A stretch of DNA of 47,767 bases from Escherichia coli (lineage in GTDB: Bacteria > Pseudomonadota > Gammaproteobacteria > Enterobacterales > Enterobacteriaceae). The notes beneath the pieces are model-generated. The model saw nothing but the letters and a program-made list of their open reading frames with translations, was not told the DNA's origin and made no database searches. Position 1 is the first letter of the stretch. Every line of letters starts with the position of its first letter. Made by a program: the position numbers and the translations under genes. The stretch lies in NCBI GenBank assembly GCA_024546615.1, contig GCA_024546615.1_5040.1, one strand, 5' to 3'. Positions 32,347 to 40,957 of this stretch are shown here, piece by piece.

Positions 32347-32375
32347 ACTCTAAACTACTTTGACGCACTCGTCAA
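32347..32375 (-). promoter_or_regulatory. Sigma70-like promoter TTGACG-17-TAGAGT overlapping palindrome TTGACGCACTCGTCAA (32360-32375), embedded in 3' end of upstream gene
   Basis: Spacing read directly. Confidence 0.5.
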
Positions 32376-32948
32376 CGGTAAAACTAACTTTTCTGCTTCC
32401 TGAATGTACCAGTCGTAATTCAGTGCTCCCCAGTCGAAGTCTTTAGCGTCGGCACACTCTGTCACCTTCCATCCTGCACACATACTTGTTTCGCGCACTG
32501 CATCGTGCTTACTGCGACTCTTCGTGTGGATACGCTCGTCCCACGGTGTACCAATGCTGTCGAGGTCGCCCGGTTGACCTGTAATCTCACGCATTACCGC
32601 ATTGTACACATCGTCCTTGACACCATTCTTACGCTTCCATGTACCTGGTGTACCAGTGGGCGGTAACAGCTTGACCAGTGACCCACCGTTACGCGAGATA
32701 AATACACGTGTGGTATTCTGCATCTCCTGTTCAGCGCCCCACTCAGGCCAACGCATCACCAGACGTGCCGAACGAGGTACTTTGGCGCGCAGCATGAAGT
32801 CGAACGGGTCACGGTGCTGCGTGATGAACGTGCGGATGTCAGTGTCAAACAGAAGTGCGGCTTCAGCGGCGCGGGCAACAATCATCGCCGATGGGTCTTG
32901 ATGCCACTGGTATTTGTACTCGTAACACCCTTTTCTTTTAATTTTCAC
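32355..32948 (-). CDS. Hypothetical protein (197 aa) sharing GTPWDERIH motif with 37785-38834
   Basis: Motif DSIGTPWDERIHTKS versus DSTGTPWDERIHSTS in the 349-aa protein. Confidence 0.45.
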   Translation of the reverse strand: MKIKRKGCYEYKYQWHQDPSAMIVARAAEAALLFDTDIRTFITQHRDPFDFMLRAKVPRSARLVMRWPEWGAEQEMQNTTRVFISRNGGSLVKLLPPTGTPGTWKRKNGVKDDVYNAVMREITGQPGDLDSIGTPWDERIHTKSRSKHDAVRETSMCAGWKVTECADAKDFDWGALNYDWYIQEAEKLVLPLTSASK

Positions 32949-33828
32949 GGGTTGCCTCCAGCATTTCTAAAATTCGATTGTCCCATTTCAACCATTCGGT
33001 ACAACCATCAAAACCAGATAGTCCAGCATTAACGAAAGAAGAATGAGTTAGTTTTTCGATAAATTCCATTTTTCCACCTATGCCAGATAAAACTCGGAGT
33101 AACTGAAAATCAAATGGCGTACTTCTTTTCAATTTCCTCAAGCGATATTTATAATTATTGCTGATACCGACCTTCATATATTCCCCACCTTTGGAAGCAA
33201 GTACATAAAGGGAAGCCATCTGGTTACGTTTAAATCCACTCTTAGAACAGTCTTGACATCCTTGTCCACCGGATACGTGATCTATAGCCAATTTTTCAAA
33301 ACTACCGTGAACAGGGCAAATTATCTTTATTTTATGATGATTACCTTTATATTGAGATTCCGAATAATCATACTTATCCCCATGTACTGCGCGGGCTTTC
33401 TCAATCCATTCTTCGGTGTTATAAAGAGGAAGTCGTCCTTTTCCAGGACCTCCTGCGCATTTCGCGCACCCGTGGCCTTTTAGATGATTGCCGGCTAATT
33501 GGAGGAATTCCCCATGCTCTCGACAAATGATTATTATTTCTGAATGTCGTTTTTTATACTTAACCTTCGAATAATCATACTTATCTCCATGTACTGCACG
33601 GGCTTTCTCAATCCATTCTTCAGTGCTGGATTTTTTTGTCCCACCACAAACTGGGCAGCCGGAACCAGAACAGTGAGACGTGGGTTCTTGTCGGAAATCT
33701 CCATGCAATCGACAAACAATGGTCACTTTATGTTTTGAAGTACGATACTCGACCTTCGAATAATCATACTTATCTCCGTGTACCGCACGGGCTTTCTCAA
33801 TCCATTCTTCTGTGTTCAATCTTCTCAT
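32938..33828 (-). CDS. Homing-endonuclease-like protein: three tandem zinc-ribbon modules plus C-terminal T5orf172 (GIY-YIG-like) domain
   Basis: Three repeats of EEWIEKARAVHGDKYDYS...; C-terminal YVLASKGGEYMKVGISNNYKYRLRKL...GCTEWLKW; contains three ~55-bp DNA direct repeats. Confidence 0.6.
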   Translation of the reverse strand: MRRLNTEEWIEKARAVHGDKYDYSKVEYRTSKHKVTIVCRLHGDFRQEPTSHCSGSGCPVCGGTKKSSTEEWIEKARAVHGDKYDYSKVKYKKRHSEIIIICREHGEFLQLAGNHLKGHGCAKCAGGPGKGRLPLYNTEEWIEKARAVHGDKYDYSESQYKGNHHKIKIICPVHGSFEKLAIDHVSGGQGCQDCSKSGFKRNQMASLYVLASKGGEYMKVGISNNYKYRLRKLKRSTPFDFQLLRVLSGIGGKMEFIEKLTHSSFVNAGLSGFDGCTEWLKWDNRILEMLEATREN

Positions 33829-35348
33829 TCTATTACCATTATGTAATTATTCACATCTCGCTGATAGAGAGATTTCACAATATCAGTCTCCAGATTCAAC
33901 ATTGTTGTTTTTTCCCAAGACTTACATATGGATTCCACCAAAATTTCATATTTGTTTTCATAAAAAATGACGATTCCGTCAGTATTAGTTTGCGGTACGA
34001 TTAATCCGGGTACACGAGTTACAAGTTGGTCTACCAACATTGCCAAACAGAGTTGACCTGTAATAGTAATACTCAGGAGACACTTATGGTCACAAAATGG
34101 GCTAAATTTACTCCCCATGTTCCCAAATGTACCATTAAGAGCAAGTTTCAATGCCGCATCAACTGTTTTATCTCCCGCTCGTTTTGCATCACGACGACGA
34201 ATGAACAGTTGTTCATATACGTCGCAAAAAGTTTCACTAAGGTGTTCCGGATAGTACCTATTCTTTATACTAATGGAAGGGTACATACTTGTACAGTCTT
34301 TGTTTTGTAAATTGTGTGTTTGGGTAGAATGCACAACGTAGTTCGGAATACTACTGTGAATACCTCCCAATCCGAACGAATATTCGACACCATCAACTGT
34401 GACGGTCATATCACTAAACACACCTTTTGTGGTCAGTAATTCGTCCTGTTGTTTCTTCGTGAGTACAACCCCACGAATGCGTTCCAGAATTTGATTGAAC
34501 TCCGGTCGTTCGAATTTGATATAAGGGGGTATGCAATCTGCAAGTGCAATACGTTCACGAATGGTTACTCCGGAGCAATCTACCCCGGCCTTTTCCAGCT
34601 CGTGAACGAATATATCTTTGCCGATTTTAGTGTCGGCGTGGTTCATGAAGTTACGTCCGTATTGCTTTGTCAGTTCCTCACGGAAATGGATTTTGTCGAG
34701 TGAACGTACAAAGAATTTCAGCGTCTCTCGCACGTCGTGTTTGTTATATACGATGAGGATATCTTTCTGCGCATCGTTCAGCACCATTCCGACCGGGAAT
34801 GGCAGGTCTTTTACGTTGGGGGACTGCATGCCCACTTCCAACGCCTTCAGACTGGTGCGCCGGGCTTTATTATCAAAGTGATGAATTTTGTACAGGTCAA
34901 TCTGCTCGAAAATCTGGTCGCGGTCCCATACAATTTCGGGCCACTGACCTTCGGGTTTAATTTGTGATTGTGCTTTTGTGTAAATCTGTTCCAGTGTACA
35001 GCCTGGTGTATTGACCACGTAGTGCAACACCGGATAGTCGAATGCCAGGTTATTAAATCCAATCCCACGGGCCTTACTACATCCCAGGTTGAACACAAAT
35101 TCGATTAATTGCGGTTGCTCGTTTTTGCGGTCACTAATCTCGAAGATTAACTCCATACCCGTCGCAGCGTGAATAAATGAGGCAGTGAAGATATTCGGAT
35201 ACGTCTCGATGTCCCATCCCCAGTCCCGCGGGTCCAGTGGTGCAACGCTGGAGAACGCCGAATCAGCCCCACAGTGAGGGCAATTGTGGAGGTCAGCGGG
35301 ATAATTTTTACCGCAAGTTGCATCCTCGCATTTTGATAAATAGTGCAT
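33825..35348 (-). CDS. Compact family-B DNA polymerase with 3'-5' exonuclease motifs and N-terminal zinc finger
   Basis: Exo I WDIETY, Exo II FNNLAFDYPVL, Exo III YNKHDVRE; motif A DCTSMYPSI, motif B KLALNGTFG, motif C TNTDG; N-terminal C-x4-C-x11-C-x2-C. Confidence 0.7.
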   Translation of the reverse strand: MHYLSKCEDATCGKNYPADLHNCPHCGADSAFSSVAPLDPRDWGWDIETYPNIFTASFIHAATGMELIFEISDRKNEQPQLIEFVFNLGCSKARGIGFNNLAFDYPVLHYVVNTPGCTLEQIYTKAQSQIKPEGQWPEIVWDRDQIFEQIDLYKIHHFDNKARRTSLKALEVGMQSPNVKDLPFPVGMVLNDAQKDILIVYNKHDVRETLKFFVRSLDKIHFREELTKQYGRNFMNHADTKIGKDIFVHELEKAGVDCSGVTIRERIALADCIPPYIKFERPEFNQILERIRGVVLTKKQQDELLTTKGVFSDMTVTVDGVEYSFGLGGIHSSIPNYVVHSTQTHNLQNKDCTSMYPSISIKNRYYPEHLSETFCDVYEQLFIRRRDAKRAGDKTVDAALKLALNGTFGNMGSKFSPFCDHKCLLSITITGQLCLAMLVDQLVTRVPGLIVPQTNTDGIVIFYENKYEILVESICKSWEKTTMLNLETDIVKSLYQRDVNNYIMVIE

Positions 35349-35365
35349 CTCTGTTCCTCTCTGTA

Positions 35366-35392
35366 AGAAAAGCCCCGTGAGGGGCTTAATTG
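35366..35392 (-). terminator. Hairpin AAGCCCC-TCAC-GGGGCTT plus U-rich tail on minus strand, upstream of polymerase RBS (terminator/attenuator)
   Basis: Read directly; followed on minus strand by RBS AGAGAGGAACAGAG and polymerase ATG. Confidence 0.45.
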
Positions 35393-35527
35393 TTAACCTT
35401 TCGTATACTTATTTAAACCATTCTGGTTAATGTATTCCCGGCGTTGCTCCTGCACCTGTTTGATAGCCTTTTCCAGTTCGGCTAGCTTTTCATCAAACTG
35501 TTTCAGTCGCTGGTCATGTTCGGTCAT
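35393..35527 (-). CDS. Small coiled-coil protein (44 aa)
   Basis: MTEHDQRLKQFDEKLAELEKAIKQVQEQRREY...; RBS AGAGAGGTG; below track cutoff. Confidence 0.3.
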   Translation of the reverse strand: MTEHDQRLKQFDEKLAELEKAIKQVQEQRREYINQNGLNKYTKG

Positions 35528-35575
35528 GATGCACCTCTCTGTTAAATTACCCCGGCTTGCACCGGGGCGTTGTGG

Positions 35576-36388
35576 TTATGCTACTTTCTGACAGTGTTGC
35601 GCGATTAACTCTTCGCTCCAGCCGGGCATGCCGAGCAATTGTGCTTTGGTGTACACCGTGCCGTTGTAGCTGTACTTCTCTTCAACAACCGGCGGAGGTG
35701 TTACCAGCAGGTCAGTTGCTGGCGGCGGTGTTGCAGGTGCTGGGGCAGCCGGGGCTGGGGTTGATGCTACCTGAGCGGGTGCGCCAGCACCGAACACGCT
35801 TGCTGCATCCGGACCGCTGCCTTCACGAACAATCGCTTCGCCAGGACGTGACAGTTCGAGCAGGTTTGGGTTCAGATACACGCCCGGAGTTTTGGACGGC
35901 TTATTACCCTTCGCTACGATGTTCACGCGGACATAATCGCCGAGCTTAATAGCGTTTACGTCCTGAATCGCATCGAGCGGATTATATTTGCCAACATGAT
36001 AACAGTTGTACGGGATGCGGGTGTTCAGGTGTAATACCCAGTGACCGCGTTTGTATTCGTCGCTGTTTGGCGCGTGACCGGCTTTGTTTGGGATGTCGCT
36101 GTCACCGTCGATTACTTTCCAGGAAAAGTCCGGGCGACGAGTGGTAGCAACATCATAACCGTTCTCAGCGTCCAGTGCCGCCATAACAATTTGTTTACCC
36201 CATTCGGTATCTTTCCAGTCTGCTTCGCCAGTTTTAGGGATTGCGATACCGATGTAAATTTCTTTAACCGGCTGACCATCTTTACCAATAACCGGCTGCT
36301 TTGTGACATCATCAGTGCGTACATTTTGTTTCAGCGGGTGACCGTGAATCAGGCGAGCAACAGGGGTAACGAAAGTAAATTGAGCCAT
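35576..36388 (-). CDS. ssDNA-binding protein, DUF2815-like
   Basis: Pattern resembles DUF2815 phage SSBs; Pro/Ala-rich linker and conserved C-terminal tail; adjacent to Cas4-like nuclease. Confidence 0.55.
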   Translation of the reverse strand: MAQFTFVTPVARLIHGHPLKQNVRTDDVTKQPVIGKDGQPVKEIYIGIAIPKTGEADWKDTEWGKQIVMAALDAENGYDVATTRRPDFSWKVIDGDSDIPNKAGHAPNSDEYKRGHWVLHLNTRIPYNCYHVGKYNPLDAIQDVNAIKLGDYVRVNIVAKGNKPSKTPGVYLNPNLLELSRPGEAIVREGSGPDAASVFGAGAPAQVASTPAPAAPAPATPPPATDLLVTPPPVVEEKYSYNGTVYTKAQLLGMPGWSEELIAQHCQKVA

Positions 36389-36442
36389 CTTGTAAATCCT
36401 CTCTGCTAAGTGTGGGAGACCCTCTGTCTCCCGGTGATTTGA

Positions 36443-36471
36443 ATACTACGTTAGTTTGACGAGTGCGTCAA
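36443..36471 (-). promoter_or_regulatory. Sigma70-like promoter TTGACG-17-TAGTAT overlapping palindrome TTGACGAGTGCGTCAA (36456-36471); 5'-UTR hairpin GGGAGAC/GTCTCCC at 36414-36432
   Basis: Spacing and hairpin read directly. Confidence 0.5.
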
Positions 36472-36474
36472 CAG

Positions 36475-37602
36475 TTATTTTCGGGAAAATACATTTTTAA
36501 TTGCACGTTCATCGACCTGTTCCAGTTTGACACCCGTGACAGGTGTTTCAGCGTACTGCTCCACTACGGACGGATCGATACCCTTTTTGACACACTGTGC
36601 GGGTGTGTCCAGTTCCTGCGGCTTACGCACATCAACACCCTGCAACTCCGCCATGAATATAACCTGGTCCACCGGAACATCTTTCTTCCAGCGCTTGCGA
36701 CCATACGTGGTTTTAGCGCTGTAGAATGTCACGTGTTGCCCCTGTTTAATCTCGTGTAGGGCTTGTTCTTCCAGACCGCTGAGACGCATTTTAATCATCT
36801 CCTGTGCACGCTGCAGAAGTCGCAGTTCGACACCCAACGCATGACCGGACAAGTTGTGCGTCTGCAGCGATGTCACGTAATCGATACCGGCGTAACTCTG
36901 TTGCTTCAGTGTGTCACAGTGCGCACGTGCGCTACAGTCGAGACAGTGTGGTCCGGGTGTACACAGTGGGGCGGCGTCCAGTACGCGGGGCATCGTCTCG
37001 TTCACCTGCTGTCGGTATGCGCACAGTTCATCGTATGTGAGCGCCCATTTGCGCACTGTACCCTCACTGGTGAATCCGCGAGGCTGCACGATGACCAGTT
37101 CGATAATGTCCGGCGGTGTCTGGAATTGCTCGCAAATGCTGAATGCTTCAATTAACAGCTGCCAGTTTTCAAACGGGTCAACAATGCGGTGACCGAATTT
37201 AGCGTCCCAGACGCGTAACACCTTCGCTTCCGGTACATATACCCACGCATCGGGGATACAGTACCAGTCGCTGTAACCTGGTACAGGACACACTTCCTCA
37301 ACGTGAAGGTCATGTAGTCGCTCATGACTGTTACAGTAACCCCATACCTCGTTAAAATACTCGCGGGCTGCGTCAAACAGTTCGTCCGTGATAACAATGC
37401 CATCCTTTGACAGACTACCTACCAGGTCACTGAATGGCTCATTTTTGAATAACTTCTGAGCCACTTCGTGTGCTGCCCGGCCCTCAAGCCGGGATTGTGA
37501 CGGTTCGACGTCCAGTGGTGGATAAGCCTGCTGCGCCCGGAATGACCCATTACAGGTCATCCATTGTCCGGCATCAGATACTTTGGGTAGTTGTGTGGTC
37601 AT
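36475..37602 (-). CDS. Cas4/RecB-family PD-(D/E)XK nuclease (DUF2800-like) with Cys4 cluster
   Basis: N-terminal Cys (MTCNG) plus C-terminal C-x2-C-x5-C (CLDCSARAHC); VWDAKFG resembling motif III. Confidence 0.6.
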   Translation of the reverse strand: MTTQLPKVSDAGQWMTCNGSFRAQQAYPPLDVEPSQSRLEGRAAHEVAQKLFKNEPFSDLVGSLSKDGIVITDELFDAAREYFNEVWGYCNSHERLHDLHVEEVCPVPGYSDWYCIPDAWVYVPEAKVLRVWDAKFGHRIVDPFENWQLLIEAFSICEQFQTPPDIIELVIVQPRGFTSEGTVRKWALTYDELCAYRQQVNETMPRVLDAAPLCTPGPHCLDCSARAHCDTLKQQSYAGIDYVTSLQTHNLSGHALGVELRLLQRAQEMIKMRLSGLEEQALHEIKQGQHVTFYSAKTTYGRKRWKKDVPVDQVIFMAELQGVDVRKPQELDTPAQCVKKGIDPSVVEQYAETPVTGVKLEQVDERAIKNVFSRK

Positions 37603-37781
37603 TTCAACACCTTTGATTTCACGGTGTATTCATATTTTCTGTTATTACTCTTATTCTTTTCAGAAGCGATATTGACAGCCTCTTTCTTATCAACATAAAC
37701 ATCAACCACTTCTGGTTCGAATTTACGTCCAAACGGTGATTGATATTCTTTCATTAAAATATAAACTTTAGCCCCTTGCAT
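37599..37781 (-). CDS. Hypothetical protein (60 aa)
   Basis: RBS GGGGGAGTGAGA; ATGA overlap with downstream gene. Confidence 0.45.
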   Translation of the reverse strand: MQGAKVYILMKEYQSPFGRKFEPEVVDVYVDKKEAVNIASEKNKSNNRKYEYTVKSKVLK

Positions 37782-37784
37782 CTC

Positions 37785-38834
37785 TCACTCCCCCAAATGC
37801 GCTTTAACACGTGCCACGAACGGACCGATTTTATCCGGGTGGGCGTTCAGTTCCTGTACCGACGACATGCCATCCTGCGCCAGTAGCATATTCACCGTTA
37901 CCACATCAATCTTGCCGTGACGCTCGGTCAGGAAGGTCATGAGGCGCGGGAAGTCCCATATGGTGTGGTCTACCATACGCTCTAACGCTGGAGAGACAGT
38001 GCCCGACGGTGGGAAAGGAACGCCGTCATCGAATTGCGGCACAGGTGGTGCAACAACTACCGGCGGCGGTACAGGCAGTGGCGGAATACCCGCAACGGTT
38101 TGCTCGGTTACCACACCTGCGTCAGTGTGGAAGTCGTCACCCGGAGGTGTTACAGCTGGTTCGACGTCGTCGCTTTCCCCAACACCAACACCACCGTTGC
38201 CGCCAGAGCCGGGTCGGCGGTCTGTATCCCAGGATTCATCGCCCGGCGGTGTTACGGGTGGTTCTAGCATCTTGTTAGAAGCTTCGATGAGTTCGTCGAC
38301 TTCTTCTCGTGTGGGTTCACCAATTTCCACGGGTTCCAGGGCTTTAACTTCTTCATCAGTCATTACTGGTGTTTGAGTATGCGACTCAGCTTTCACCGAC
38401 TCAACAAATGCTGCCCACTCTTCTTCATCCATATCCTTCGGCTTACGACGCAAACGCCACGTACCGTCCACATTGAGCGCTTTGCTGGTAGAGTGGATAC
38501 GCTCATCCCACGGTGTACCGGTTGAGTCGGTAGTGGGTGGGTCGATATCCGGTTTAACTGGTACGCACAATTCAACCATTTCGCGAGTTACTTCAATACT
38601 TCTCCCGTCACGGGGAGCCAGTGACTCAACCTGTTGAGCGGTCGTGTCGATTTCCGGCTCATCCATCATTTGTGGCGCGGGTTGTTGCAGTGCTTCAGTG
38701 CCGATAACCAGTGGGGTTACGGTCACATCGACCGGGTAACCATCTTTTTTGCTGGCAATTTCGATAAGCGCTTTACCGAATTGAAACAATGCGATGGTAT
38801 CATCGTTCGGGATGGTCAGTGTGATGTTACTCAT
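37785..38834 (-). CDS. Acidic, proline-rich hypothetical protein (349 aa)
   Basis: First gene of leftward replication block; low-complexity Pro/Glu/Asp-rich regions; shares GTPWDERIH motif with 32355-32948. Confidence 0.5.
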   Translation of the reverse strand: MSNITLTIPNDDTIALFQFGKALIEIASKKDGYPVDVTVTPLVIGTEALQQPAPQMMDEPEIDTTAQQVESLAPRDGRSIEVTREMVELCVPVKPDIDPPTTDSTGTPWDERIHSTSKALNVDGTWRLRRKPKDMDEEEWAAFVESVKAESHTQTPVMTDEEVKALEPVEIGEPTREEVDELIEASNKMLEPPVTPPGDESWDTDRRPGSGGNGGVGVGESDDVEPAVTPPGDDFHTDAGVVTEQTVAGIPPLPVPPPVVVAPPVPQFDDGVPFPPSGTVSPALERMVDHTIWDFPRLMTFLTERHGKIDVVTVNMLLAQDGMSSVQELNAHPDKIGPFVARVKAHLGE

Positions 38835-38868: not shown

Positions 38869-38897
38869 ACTCTATATCACCATGACGCAGCCGTCAA
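38869..38897 (-). promoter_or_regulatory. Sigma70-like promoter TTGACG-17-TAGAGT overlapping palindrome ATGACGCAGCCGTCAA (38882-38897)
   Basis: Spacing read directly. Confidence 0.5.
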
Positions 38898-38911
38898 TAC
38901 TAATTTTAAAT

Positions 38912-38954
38912 TTGACACGGGGTGGGTGGTGCGACATAATGACGCCATCGTCAA
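38912..38954 (+). promoter_or_regulatory. Sigma70-like promoter TTGACA-17-CATAAT with palindrome ATGACGCCATCGTCAA (38939-38954) overlapping -10/+1
   Basis: Near-consensus hexamers; palindrome in operator-like position. Confidence 0.55.
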
Positions 38955-38974
38955 TATTTGAGAAGGAGTGAGAG

Positions 38975-39151
38975 ATGAGCCAAATTAAACGCAAAGTAAC
39001 ACATCGTGTTTGCCCTTTATGTGGGTATGTAATGACTCAACTGGAAATAGACAGACTTCGTTTTCCGGTTGAGTGCCCCAGATGTGGCGAACACAACACA
39101 AACGAGTTTCAACCTCTCAAATGGGAGTCCGACAACAGTGACACAAATTAA
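38975..39151 (+). CDS. Small zinc-ribbon protein (58 aa, C-x2-C ... C-x2-C)
   Basis: RBS GAAGGAG; VCPLCG and ECPRCG pairs; below track cutoff. Confidence 0.45.
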   Translation: MSQIKRKVTHRVCPLCGYVMTQLEIDRLRFPVECPRCGEHNTNEFQPLKWESDNSDTN

Positions 39152-39298: not shown

Positions 39299-40957
39299 GT
39301 GGGAGATGTGATGCAACTGCGCCCATATCAGTCCAGTCTTGTGACTGGGATCAATAATTATTGGTCAACAAACCCACGGGGTAAAGTGCTGGCGGTGCTT
39401 GCGACAGGTGGTGGGAAGACTGTTATTTTCTCATCTATTATCGCTGCCGAACAAGGTGCGACATGTGCCATTGCACACCGCCAGGAACTCGTCAGTCAGA
39501 TGAGTCTCACGCTTGCCAAAAACGGTATCTATCACCGCATTGTCGGTTCGAATAAAACCGTGAAAAACTGTGTGAAGATTCACATGGATGAATTAGGTAA
39601 GACATTTTACGACGCTGGAAGTAAACACGCGGTCGCCAGTGTGGACACAATCATCCGGCGTGGCGAGCAACTTGCCAACTGGTTACCGTCTGTTCGTCTG
39701 TGGGTTATCGATGAGGCACACCATGTACTTAAAGATAACAAATGGGGCAAAGCCGTGCAGATGTTCCCCAATGCTCGCGGGCTGGGGGTTACAGCTACAC
39801 CGTGTCGTGCGGATGGTAACGGTCTGGGAAGTCATGCAGATGGCGTGTTTGATACTATGTTCGAAGGCGTGGCAATGGGGGAACTCATACGAGATGGGTA
39901 TCTGACCGATTACAAAATTTTCGCACCTCCCAGTAGTTTCTCACGTGAACAAATTAAGGTGAGCGAGTCCACGGGGGATTTCAACCTGAACCAGATGAGG
40001 GAGGTCGTTAACGGCTCATCACTGGTGACACACGATGAGAAAACCATCACCGGTGATGTTGTTGCTCAATATCTGAAAATTGCCCGTGGTAAATCCGGCG
40101 TGACATTCACTGTCGACGTGGCGAGCGCTGAGGAAATCGCGGAACAGTATAATAAAGCAGGTGTCCCGGCAGCGGCAATAAGCTGTAACACTCCTGACCT
40201 TGAACGATTCGCAGCGGTGCGAAAATTTAAAAATAAAGAGATATTACAATTAGTTAACTCCGAGATTCTGACCGAGGGCTTCGATTGTCCCGGCATTGAG
40301 GTTGTTTCATTCGGTCGTCCAACCGAATCGTACAGTATGTATAGTCAAATGTTTGGCCGCGCCCTCAGACCATTACCAGGTAAAACCCACGCAATTATTA
40401 TTGACCATGTGGGTAACGTCATGCGCCACGGTTTACCGGATGCACCGCGTGAGTGGAGTCTTGACCGTCGGGAGCGTCGCACGGGTAAAAGTGAACCATC
40501 TACGGTGCGTGTGTGTACAGCTTGCGCGGCAGTGTATGAGCGGTTCCGTGACGCGTGTCCTGACTGTGGCGAACCTGTGCCAAAACCGGCGCAACGTAGT
40601 GGTCCCGAATTCGTAGACGGTGACCTGTACGAGCTTGACCCGGACGTACTGGCGCAGATGCGTAACGAGGTTGTGGGAGCACGTGAGACACCCGAGGCAA
40701 TGCGTGACAGACTGACTGGTCGCTACATGCCACAAGCTGGTGTCATAAGTGAGGTACGAAAACAAATAAAACGTCTTGACGCGCTCGTCAAACTGGACCA
40801 TACTCTTGCTCAGTGGGCCGGTTATCGCCGTGCGGAAGGTCTGAGCGACAGCGAAATATTTCGTAAATTTTACCTGACGTATGGTGTGTCATGGCTGGAG
40901 GCGCAGGCGCTCAAAGCGGCTGATGCGGATAAATTACGGGAGAGGATTGGATTGTGA
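39299..40957 (+). CDS. SF2 DEAD/DEAH-box helicase
   Basis: Walker A LATGGGKT, motif II VIDEAHH; RBS GGGAGA. Confidence 0.75.
   Translation: MGDVMQLRPYQSSLVTGINNYWSTNPRGKVLAVLATGGGKTVIFSSIIAAEQGATCAIAHRQELVSQMSLTLAKNGIYHRIVGSNKTVKNCVKIHMDELGKTFYDAGSKHAVASVDTIIRRGEQLANWLPSVRLWVIDEAHHVLKDNKWGKAVQMFPNARGLGVTATPCRADGNGLGSHADGVFDTMFEGVAMGELIRDGYLTDYKIFAPPSSFSREQIKVSESTGDFNLNQMREVVNGSSLVTHDEKTITGDVVAQYLKIARGKSGVTFTVDVASAEEIAEQYNKAGVPAAAISCNTPDLERFAAVRKFKNKEILQLVNSEILTEGFDCPGIEVVSFGRPTESYSMYSQMFGRALRPLPGKTHAIIIDHVGNVMRHGLPDAPREWSLDRRERRTGKSEPSTVRVCTACAAVYERFRDACPDCGEPVPKPAQRSGPEFVDGDLYELDPDVLAQMRNEVVGARETPEAMRDRLTGRYMPQAGVISEVRKQIKRLDALVKLDHTLAQWAGYRRAEGLSDSEIFRKFYLTYGVSWLEAQALKAADADKLRERIGL
40776..40804 (+). 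promoter_or_regulatory. Internal promoter TTGACG-17-CATACT with palindrome TTGACGCGCTCGTCAA inside helicase 3' coding region
   Basis: Spacing read directly. Confidence 0.4.

Follow-up and report, generated by a model that had tools for sequence, protein, structure and literature searches.

The DNA polymerase and an accessory protein of a Jedunavirus-type Klebsiella myophage carry the same small module with its parts in permuted order. The phage DNA is a stretch of 47,767 nucleotides filed under Escherichia coli (GenBank assembly GCA_024546615.1, contig GCA_024546615.1_5040.1), which in its full length is referred to here as the window. It has 87–92% nucleotide identity to phages of this type, with RCIP0081, KpV79 and JD001 as best matches, and its minus strand encodes, between 38834 and 32355, a replication-recombination cassette comprising the accessory protein, a DUF2800 exonuclease, a gp2.5-like single-stranded DNA-binding protein (SSB) and the polymerase. 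The block GTPWDERIH, common to the accessory protein and the polymerase thumb, is the most conserved part of a mobile module of ~49 amino acids (aa) composed of three elements, which are arranged as A-B-C in the accessory protein and as B-C-A in an insertion of the polymerase thumb. The module is an undescribed, widespread, circularly permuted unit; no description of it was found in Pfam, NCBIfam, the PDB or the searched literature, where neither the motif strings nor the Jedunavirus polymerase yielded anything relevant. It represents a clean natural example of domain insertion via circular permutation.

The shared module and the order of its elements

The initial annotation, made from the sequence of the window, had pointed out two near-identical peptides, DSIGTPWDERIHTKS within the open reading frame (ORF) 32355–32948 and DSTGTPWDERIHSTS within the ORF 37785–38834, both on the minus strand, and both are located correctly. 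Their nine-residue core, GTPWDERIH, occurs exactly twice in the window, at 32526–32552 in the polymerase gene (GGTACACCGTGGGACGAGCGTATCCAC) and at 38493–38519 in the accessory gene (GGTACACCGTGGGATGAGCGTATCCAC), again on the minus strand; a loose six-frame scan and hidden Markov model (HMM) scans of the window returned no third copy. Judged from composition, the chance expectation of an identical shared 9-mer is ~5e-7 for this protein pair and ~1e-3 for all protein pairs of the ~16,000-aa proteome. When the profiles of the two families were compared with hhalign, the core, which belongs to element A, aligned with 98% probability and E=7e-14.

Element A follows the pattern LDxxGxPWDERIH(S/T)xxK, element B the pattern (D)GxW(R/K)x(R/K)(R/K), and element C is an amphipathic helix with the pattern Dxx(W/Y/F)xxV(M/V)xE(L/I). 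In the accessory protein the module spans aa 103–151 (38382–38528, minus strand) and reads DSTGTPWDERIHSTSK / ALNVDGTWRLRRKPKD / MDEEEWAAFVESVKAES in the order A-B-C. The polymerase copy spans aa 99–147 of the 197-aa thumb fragment (32508–32654, minus strand) and reads GTPGTWKRKNG / VKDDVYNAVMREI / TGQPGDL-DSIGTPWDERIHTKSRSK in the order B-C-A. It forms an insertion of ~45–50 aa between two thumb strands, with the pattern G.PGxWKRKNG..D..Y.AV..E...WDERIHTKNKS. The invariant motif residues include Trp109, Arg112 and His114 in the accessory protein and Trp136, Arg139 and His141 in the polymerase fragment.

Evidence for the permuted order comes from local alignments. Searching the polymerase C-terminal fragment of the window against six distant accessory proteins with phmmer gave two domains in swapped order in all six cases: polymerase residues 124–148, i.e., element A, align with the accessory motif, and residues 98–129, i.e., B-C (GTWKRKNGVKDDVYNAVMREI), match the residues that directly follow the motif in the accessory protein (e.g., DGIWKRRKGVSDELFDEVMLEL), with E-values for the B-C domain down to 6e-7 and 2.7e-6. 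Elements B-C are also covered by a second hhalign alignment, in which the order is again swapped (P=6.5e-4). Furthermore, permuting the polymerase alignment in silico produced a single alignment of 46 columns with E=2.2e-17, compared with 20 columns in the native order. With two significant local alignments in swapped order, the modules appear, at the level of sequence, to be homologous domains related by circular permutation. The similarity thus spans ~49 aa, and the earlier description of the shared blocks as embedded in unrelated contexts therefore needs correction.

Tandem modules are present in some proteins (P0247 and P0291), and a route for permutation by duplication, of which tandem copies are the expected intermediates, therefore exists. 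In both cassette proteins the secondary-structure strings assigned by DSSP are compatible with pairing of the tail strand of element A with the strand of element B. Permutation would then open the A/B hairpin and leave the new ends adjacent to each other, as insertion into a loop requires, and the old ends of the module would be joined in the polymerase by a loop of variable length. In the polymerase, the stretch joining helix C to element A is of hypervariable length, with 0 to ~45 extra residues (aa 122–130 of the window fragment, nt ~32559–32585; seen in P0129, P0131–P0135, P0137, P0141, P0142, P0173 and P0175), and this spot would be where the original termini of the permuted module were connected.

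The structural settings of the two copies differ, as the initial annotation had recognized when it called one protein globular and the other acidic, Pro-rich and of low complexity. AlphaFold2 (AF2) models have a mean predicted local distance difference test score (pLDDT) of 90 for the 197-aa thumb fragment and 52 for the 349-aa accessory protein, the latter with a pI of 4.3, 11.5% Pro, a mostly disordered chain and an ordered C-terminal helical domain (aa 290–349). At the accessory module, a hairpin (118–120/126–128) and a helix (137–151) are weakly predicted (pLDDT 48–64), whereas the polymerase module is modelled with pLDDT values of 93–97. The proposal that the shared block is a short linear motif for binding a common partner is thus partly supported: the accessory copy does lie between disordered linkers, but the block is the core of a three-element unit of ~49 aa, disorder flanks the accessory copy only, and in the polymerase the motif sits within a confidently folded thumb insertion (pLDDT ~95) rather than in a disordered peptide. 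It thereby falls outside the definition of a short linear motif, which has about 3–12 residues, lies in a disordered region and functions with no need of a fold around it.

The breadth of the module was assessed by an exhaustive phmmer search with accessory residues 96–152 (57 aa) as query, at E<=1e-3 and with clustering at 50% identity. The module is carried by 977 protein clusters, a typical member being ~273 aa long and the block lying ~40% of the way along it; two top matches (P0219 and P0276) were spurious repeat proteins and were discarded. The consensus reads LDxxGLPWDERIHSxSKxxNADGTWRxRRKPxD..EW..YVE.V.AEL, and across 134 diverse instances no variation occurs at the residues W, D, R, I, H, G and W. 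Conservation of the motif in orthologues, which the proposal in the initial annotation required, is borne out: it is kept in 120/120 of the accessory orthologues listed, which are otherwise 54–90% identical and in which the ~33 residues flanking the motif form the best-conserved part, and in polymerase relatives (an alignment of 86 split C-terminal fragments and several unsplit polymerases) WDERIHTKNKSKYE is conserved even at 35–50% identity. Variants of the motif are HDERIH in CP-T1 and Pondi, and YDERIH in some relatives. The insertion is absent from minimal polymerase relatives (RS10pmA, BcepB1A, P0190/191 and P0198–204). A tblastn search with 40 aa located the block in phages of Vibrio, Burkholderia, Stenotrophomonas, Proteus, Rhizobium, Xanthomonas, Aeromonas and others, so that the hosts of module-bearing phages span alpha-, beta- and gamma-proteobacteria. 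A profile search with a 45-aa module alignment against an index of 5.8 billion proteins, whose word index is unsuited to so short a query, gave 24 candidates, none of them usable. The invariant 49-aa module is a basis for a new domain model that covers roughly a thousand protein clusters, and it offers a concrete experimental handle.

Candidate roles of the module

We put the chances at about even that the module is a self-contained docking or nucleic-acid-contact domain that places its carrier at the replication fork. The carrier would be positioned on a single conserved component of the machinery for replication and recombination, for which the gp2.5-like SSB, the DUF2800 resection nuclease, the superfamily 2 (SF2) helicase encoded next to the cassette, or DNA itself are candidates. 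The polymerase would use the module in cis, and the accessory protein would offer it in trans on flexible acidic, Pro-rich tethers while its N- and C-terminal domains would bring other factors, in the manner of a flexible scaffold with cargo domains. One relative, P0356 (L061, 8001–9314), has a Rv2179c-like 3'-5' exonuclease domain N-terminal to a complete accessory protein; this fusion occupies the accessory slot upstream of the DUF2800 exonuclease, P0343 is another such fusion, and the exonuclease would be the N-terminal cargo in P0356. Disordered linkers on both sides of the accessory module are what is expected of a docking element. Should the module turn out to bind a component of the replisome or of the recombination machinery, it would reveal how these phages link DNA synthesis to resection and annealing.

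Several observations weigh against this picture. The two proteins of the window itself resemble each other weakly over B-C (domain E 13 and 340), and the significance of this similarity is owed to the family-level comparisons. The adjacency of the insertion ends, and a fold common to both modules, are suggested by DSSP strings and alignments. Low AF2 confidence at the accessory module could stem from a shallow alignment and not from folding upon binding. With a net charge of about -3 (accessory copy) and +1 (polymerase copy), the module is not strongly basic, and contact with DNA is correspondingly less likely. Finally, a tempting partner, the C-terminal 'GW(T/S)(D/E)' mini-domain of the SSB, is missing in some phages that have the accessory protein (PhiXhv-7, P106B and RHph), and was rejected as an obligatory partner.

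In function, the module most resembles two known arrangements, in both cases by analogy. The polymerase of phage T7, gp5, contains a thumb insertion, the thioredoxin-binding domain, that docks thioredoxin and the tails of gp2.5 and gp4. Like the present module, it is found in a particular lineage as an addition to a thumb loop of a phage polymerase, in a context with a gp2.5-type SSB; however, gp5 belongs to family A, its insertion has no sequence similarity to the thumb module, and it is neither shared with a second protein nor a permuted copy of a free-standing module. Docking is the role of the T7 insertion, the interactions of the gp2.5 tail being cited in PMC5686142, whereas docking by the present insertion is putative. 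The second resemblance is to shared hub-binding peptides. Clamp-binding peptides, such as the bacterial QL[SD]LF motif, the PIP box and the T4 gp45-binding tails, are linear, 5–10 residues long and located at termini or in disordered regions. As in the window, a polymerase and replication proteins that are otherwise dissimilar have a short sequence in common, by which they there converge on one hub; in contrast, the present module has ~49 aa, is folded in the polymerase, is circularly permuted and gives no sequence match to such peptides. Among the replication genes of the window that were checked, none was identified as coding for a sliding clamp.

A third resemblance is at most an analogy and does not indicate family membership. 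The only sequence match of the module profile in the PDB is the N-terminal Mago-Y14-binding motif of PYM (1rk8 chain C, E=0.033, 17 residues), of which the peptide 'ATKRPDGTWRKARRVKD' aligns with element B and its flanks, (S)K..N.DGTWR.RRKPKD. The Mago-binding motif of PYM is a small β-hairpin for protein binding. PYM is eukaryotic, however, the score is borderline, and PF09282 (PYM Mago-binding) is not listed for the phage proteins in Pfam scans up to E=10, and the likeness is likely to reflect convergence on a basic β-hairpin.

A bolder form of the docking proposal, which we consider tentatively and rate as rather improbable, is that the module represents a new mini-domain that targets the fork autonomously and switches one site between the polymerase in cis and a nuclease-delivering acidic scaffold in trans. 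The site would be the SSB/annealing filament, the resection nuclease, the helicase or the primer-template junction, and the accessory protein and the polymerase would compete for it through identical handles and thereby coordinate recombination-dependent replication. In a weaker version, the thumb insertion would be an unrecognized processivity or coupling insertion of a family B polymerase (PolB), derived from a captured, permuted copy of a domain of the neighbouring gene.

Somewhat less probable still is docking of the accessory module on the surface of the polymerase thumb that the cis insertion covers where it is present; the shared sequence would then be a polymerase-binding peptide captured into the polymerase and would not bind a third partner. 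It accords with this proposal that the accessory protein is present whether the polymerase has the insertion (CP-T1, Pondi, P106B, Jedunavirus) or not (RS10pmA, BcepB1A, RHph), and that the module is modelled with confidence when folded against the thumb and with low confidence when free. The gene neighbourhood, which speaks for the main proposal of docking at the fork, also bears on this one. The accessory slot is conserved in more than 20 distant phages: the gene is transcribed away from the SF2 helicase gene and sits immediately upstream of the gene for the DUF2800 exonuclease, with stop and start codons of the accessory and DUF2800 genes that often overlap or abut, and with the gp2.5-like SSB and then the polymerase further on; in PhiXhv-7 all the cassette genes are kept but dispersed. 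The polymerase in these cassettes is either PolB-like, with or without the cis module, or of the unrelated PolA type. The accessory protein thus travels with the set of helicase, exonuclease and SSB, not with one polymerase family. Its presence in PolA-type cassettes (Stenotrophomonas B2, L049, L051-53 and PhiXhv-7) weakens the case for docking on the thumb, as does the conservation of both the cis and the trans copy in Jedunaviruses, where the site would already be occupied.

We give an equally low probability to the idea that the module binds a conserved host protein (SSB, the β clamp, DnaB or RecBCD), which the accessory protein would hijack or inhibit and which the polymerase would reach by the same handle. 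A host replisome component was among the partners suggested in the initial annotation, the module is near-invariant across phages of very different proteobacterial hosts, and in its acidity and disorder the accessory protein is reminiscent of some nuclease inhibitors that mimic DNA. However, known motifs for binding the clamp or SSB do not match the module, a β-clamp motif (QL[SD]LF-like or QxxL[x]F) being absent from its conserved columns, and helicase, primase, SSB and polymerase are all supplied by the phages themselves.

Protein constraint and the 27-nt repeat

A contrasting reading, in which the two copies are a DNA-level repeat left by recent gene conversion or serving as a recombination site and have no protein-level meaning, is largely refuted and in our estimate highly improbable. 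It draws on the 27-nt cores, which are 26/27 identical and use the same codon at 7/8 degenerate positions (P ~0.005 given the codon usage of the window), an agreement that remains a mild anomaly. On the other hand, the Ser codons just upstream of the core differ (AGC vs TCA), the permuted similarity reaches beyond 27 nt, and concerted evolution was not seen in 40 genomes with both copies, in which the copies differ at 2.5 positions within genomes and 2.7 across genomes (permutation p=0.08). In distant phages the codons diverge while the residues stay, and synonymous conservation at the motif is no higher than in other conserved blocks of the gene. Diverged synonymous sites and the lack of concerted evolution indicate that the constraint acts on the protein, and the motif is not a neutral DNA repeat, the outcome that the initial annotation had named as fatal to its proposal.

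A further observation seemed to favour the repeat. A metagenomic 149-aa ORF (P0194) fuses the N-terminal part of an accessory protein to the C-terminal part of a polymerase exactly at the 27-nt core. Its source (L063; ENA ERZ15184840 NODE_259583) is a contig of 766 bp with a coverage of 0.15, and the repeat has therefore probably given rise to a chimera during assembly; a genuine recombinant with a deletion of ~6 kb is the less probable alternative. The core repeat can thus yield chimeric contigs in metagenome assemblies.

The cassette and its surroundings

The duf2800-gp2.5-pol cassette has been described as a phage replication/recombination module (PMC8093625), and DUF2800 proteins as resection nucleases related to AdnA and RecB (bioRxiv 10.64898/2026.07.14.737667). 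The published gene order is the same as in the window; the polymerase of the window, by comparison, is PolB-like and split by a homing-endonuclease gene. Neither the accessory gene upstream nor the WDERIH module is mentioned in descriptions of the cassette (PMC8093625, PMC5686142 and bioRxiv 10.64898/2026.07.14.737667). The cassette is among the commonest phage replication-recombination modules and is also found in Klebsiella therapy candidates.

The accessory gene (37785–38834, minus strand; 349 aa) is the first of the cassette, which also encodes a 60-aa ORF. The protein belongs to phrog_11133, as indicated by a full-length profile match (E=2.7e-90) and by its conserved slot upstream of the DUF2800 exonuclease; scans of Pfam, NCBIfam and PHROG gave no functional assignment, and a Foldseek search of the low-confidence model against the PDB returned nothing meaningful. 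Throughout, this first gene is annotated as hypothetical or mislabelled, with GenBank labels such as 'recombinase', 'RecT-like ssDNA annealing protein', 'ribonuclease E/G family protein' and 'pyruvate dehydrogenase E1 component' in the family, none of which is backed by profile searches. The RecT-like or recombinase label was rejected, as neither the protein of the window nor the relatives that bear this label gave a match to RecT, Erf, Rad52 or Sak in Pfam, NCBIfam or functional PHROG families. The linkers of the protein differ greatly in length, orthologues having 257–385 aa. Inside the gene, at 38134–38264, lies a 29-nt direct repeat (83% identity, 102 nt apart) that codes for the duplicated peptide EP(P/A)VTPPGD(E/D). 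A role of the gene as initiator with an internal origin was rejected, since it contains no iterons but only this coding repeat.

Next in the cassette is the PD-(D/E)XK exonuclease gene (36475–37602, minus strand; 375 aa), assigned to DUF2800 by PF10926 (E=1.5e-20) and phrog_69. It is followed by the gene for the gp2.5-like SSB or single-strand annealing protein (35576–36388, minus strand; 270 aa; phrog_7011, E=4.6e-101), whose C-terminus (window 35576–35720) consists of a Pro-rich linker and a conserved unit, 'Y.YNG..YT..QLL..PGW(S/T)EE.IA'. This mini-domain replaces the acidic tail typical of T7-type SSBs; it is also found in L005, L004, L003, L048–L057, L061, L065 and L066, and in two copies in RS10pmA.

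The N-terminal fragment of the polymerase (33825–35348, minus strand; 507 aa; phrog_1252, E=8.8e-164) holds the exonuclease motifs and polymerase motifs A–C, readable as DIETYP, FDYPVL, YNKHDV, DCTSMYPS, KLALNGTFG and TNTDG, and the polymerase has weak sequence matches to Pol II and archaeal PolB. The C-terminal fragment (32355–32948, minus strand; 197 aa, GTG start) is a family B thumb: unsplit relatives align across the junction, phrog_1252 covers both fragments, and the ORF has structural similarity to PolB thumbs; a Foldseek search of the fragment against the PDB gave nothing. The interruption, after motif C, is due to a homing-endonuclease-like gene (32938–33828, minus strand; 296 aa) that has a T5orf172/MUG113 domain by Pfam and PHROG matches and carries three TEEWIEKARAVHGDKYDYS repeats. 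It overlaps the stop of the N-terminal fragment at an ATGA (33825–33828) and shares 11 nt with the start of the C-terminal fragment, whose GTG at 32948 lies inside the endonuclease ORF. The three overlapping ORFs suggest translational coupling and a two-subunit polymerase. A group I intron was rejected as the cause of the split, as Rfam gave no match and the gap is taken up entirely by the endonuclease ORF, which overlaps the fragments on either side; in some relatives (ZCEC13 and CP-T1) the gene is unsplit.

The SF2 helicase gene (39299–40957, plus strand; 552 aa) has ResIII and Helicase_C domains (phrog_16), is transcribed divergently from the cassette and is followed by a large primase gene; such a helicase accompanies the accessory protein in every phage examined. 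Because of the large primase, protein-primed replication with a terminal protein was rejected. The divergent promoter region between the accessory gene and the helicase operon (38882–39049) contains three 18-nt copies of ATGACGCAGCCGTCAATA and variants, spaced 57 and 93 nt, which may be operator sites or origin iterons.

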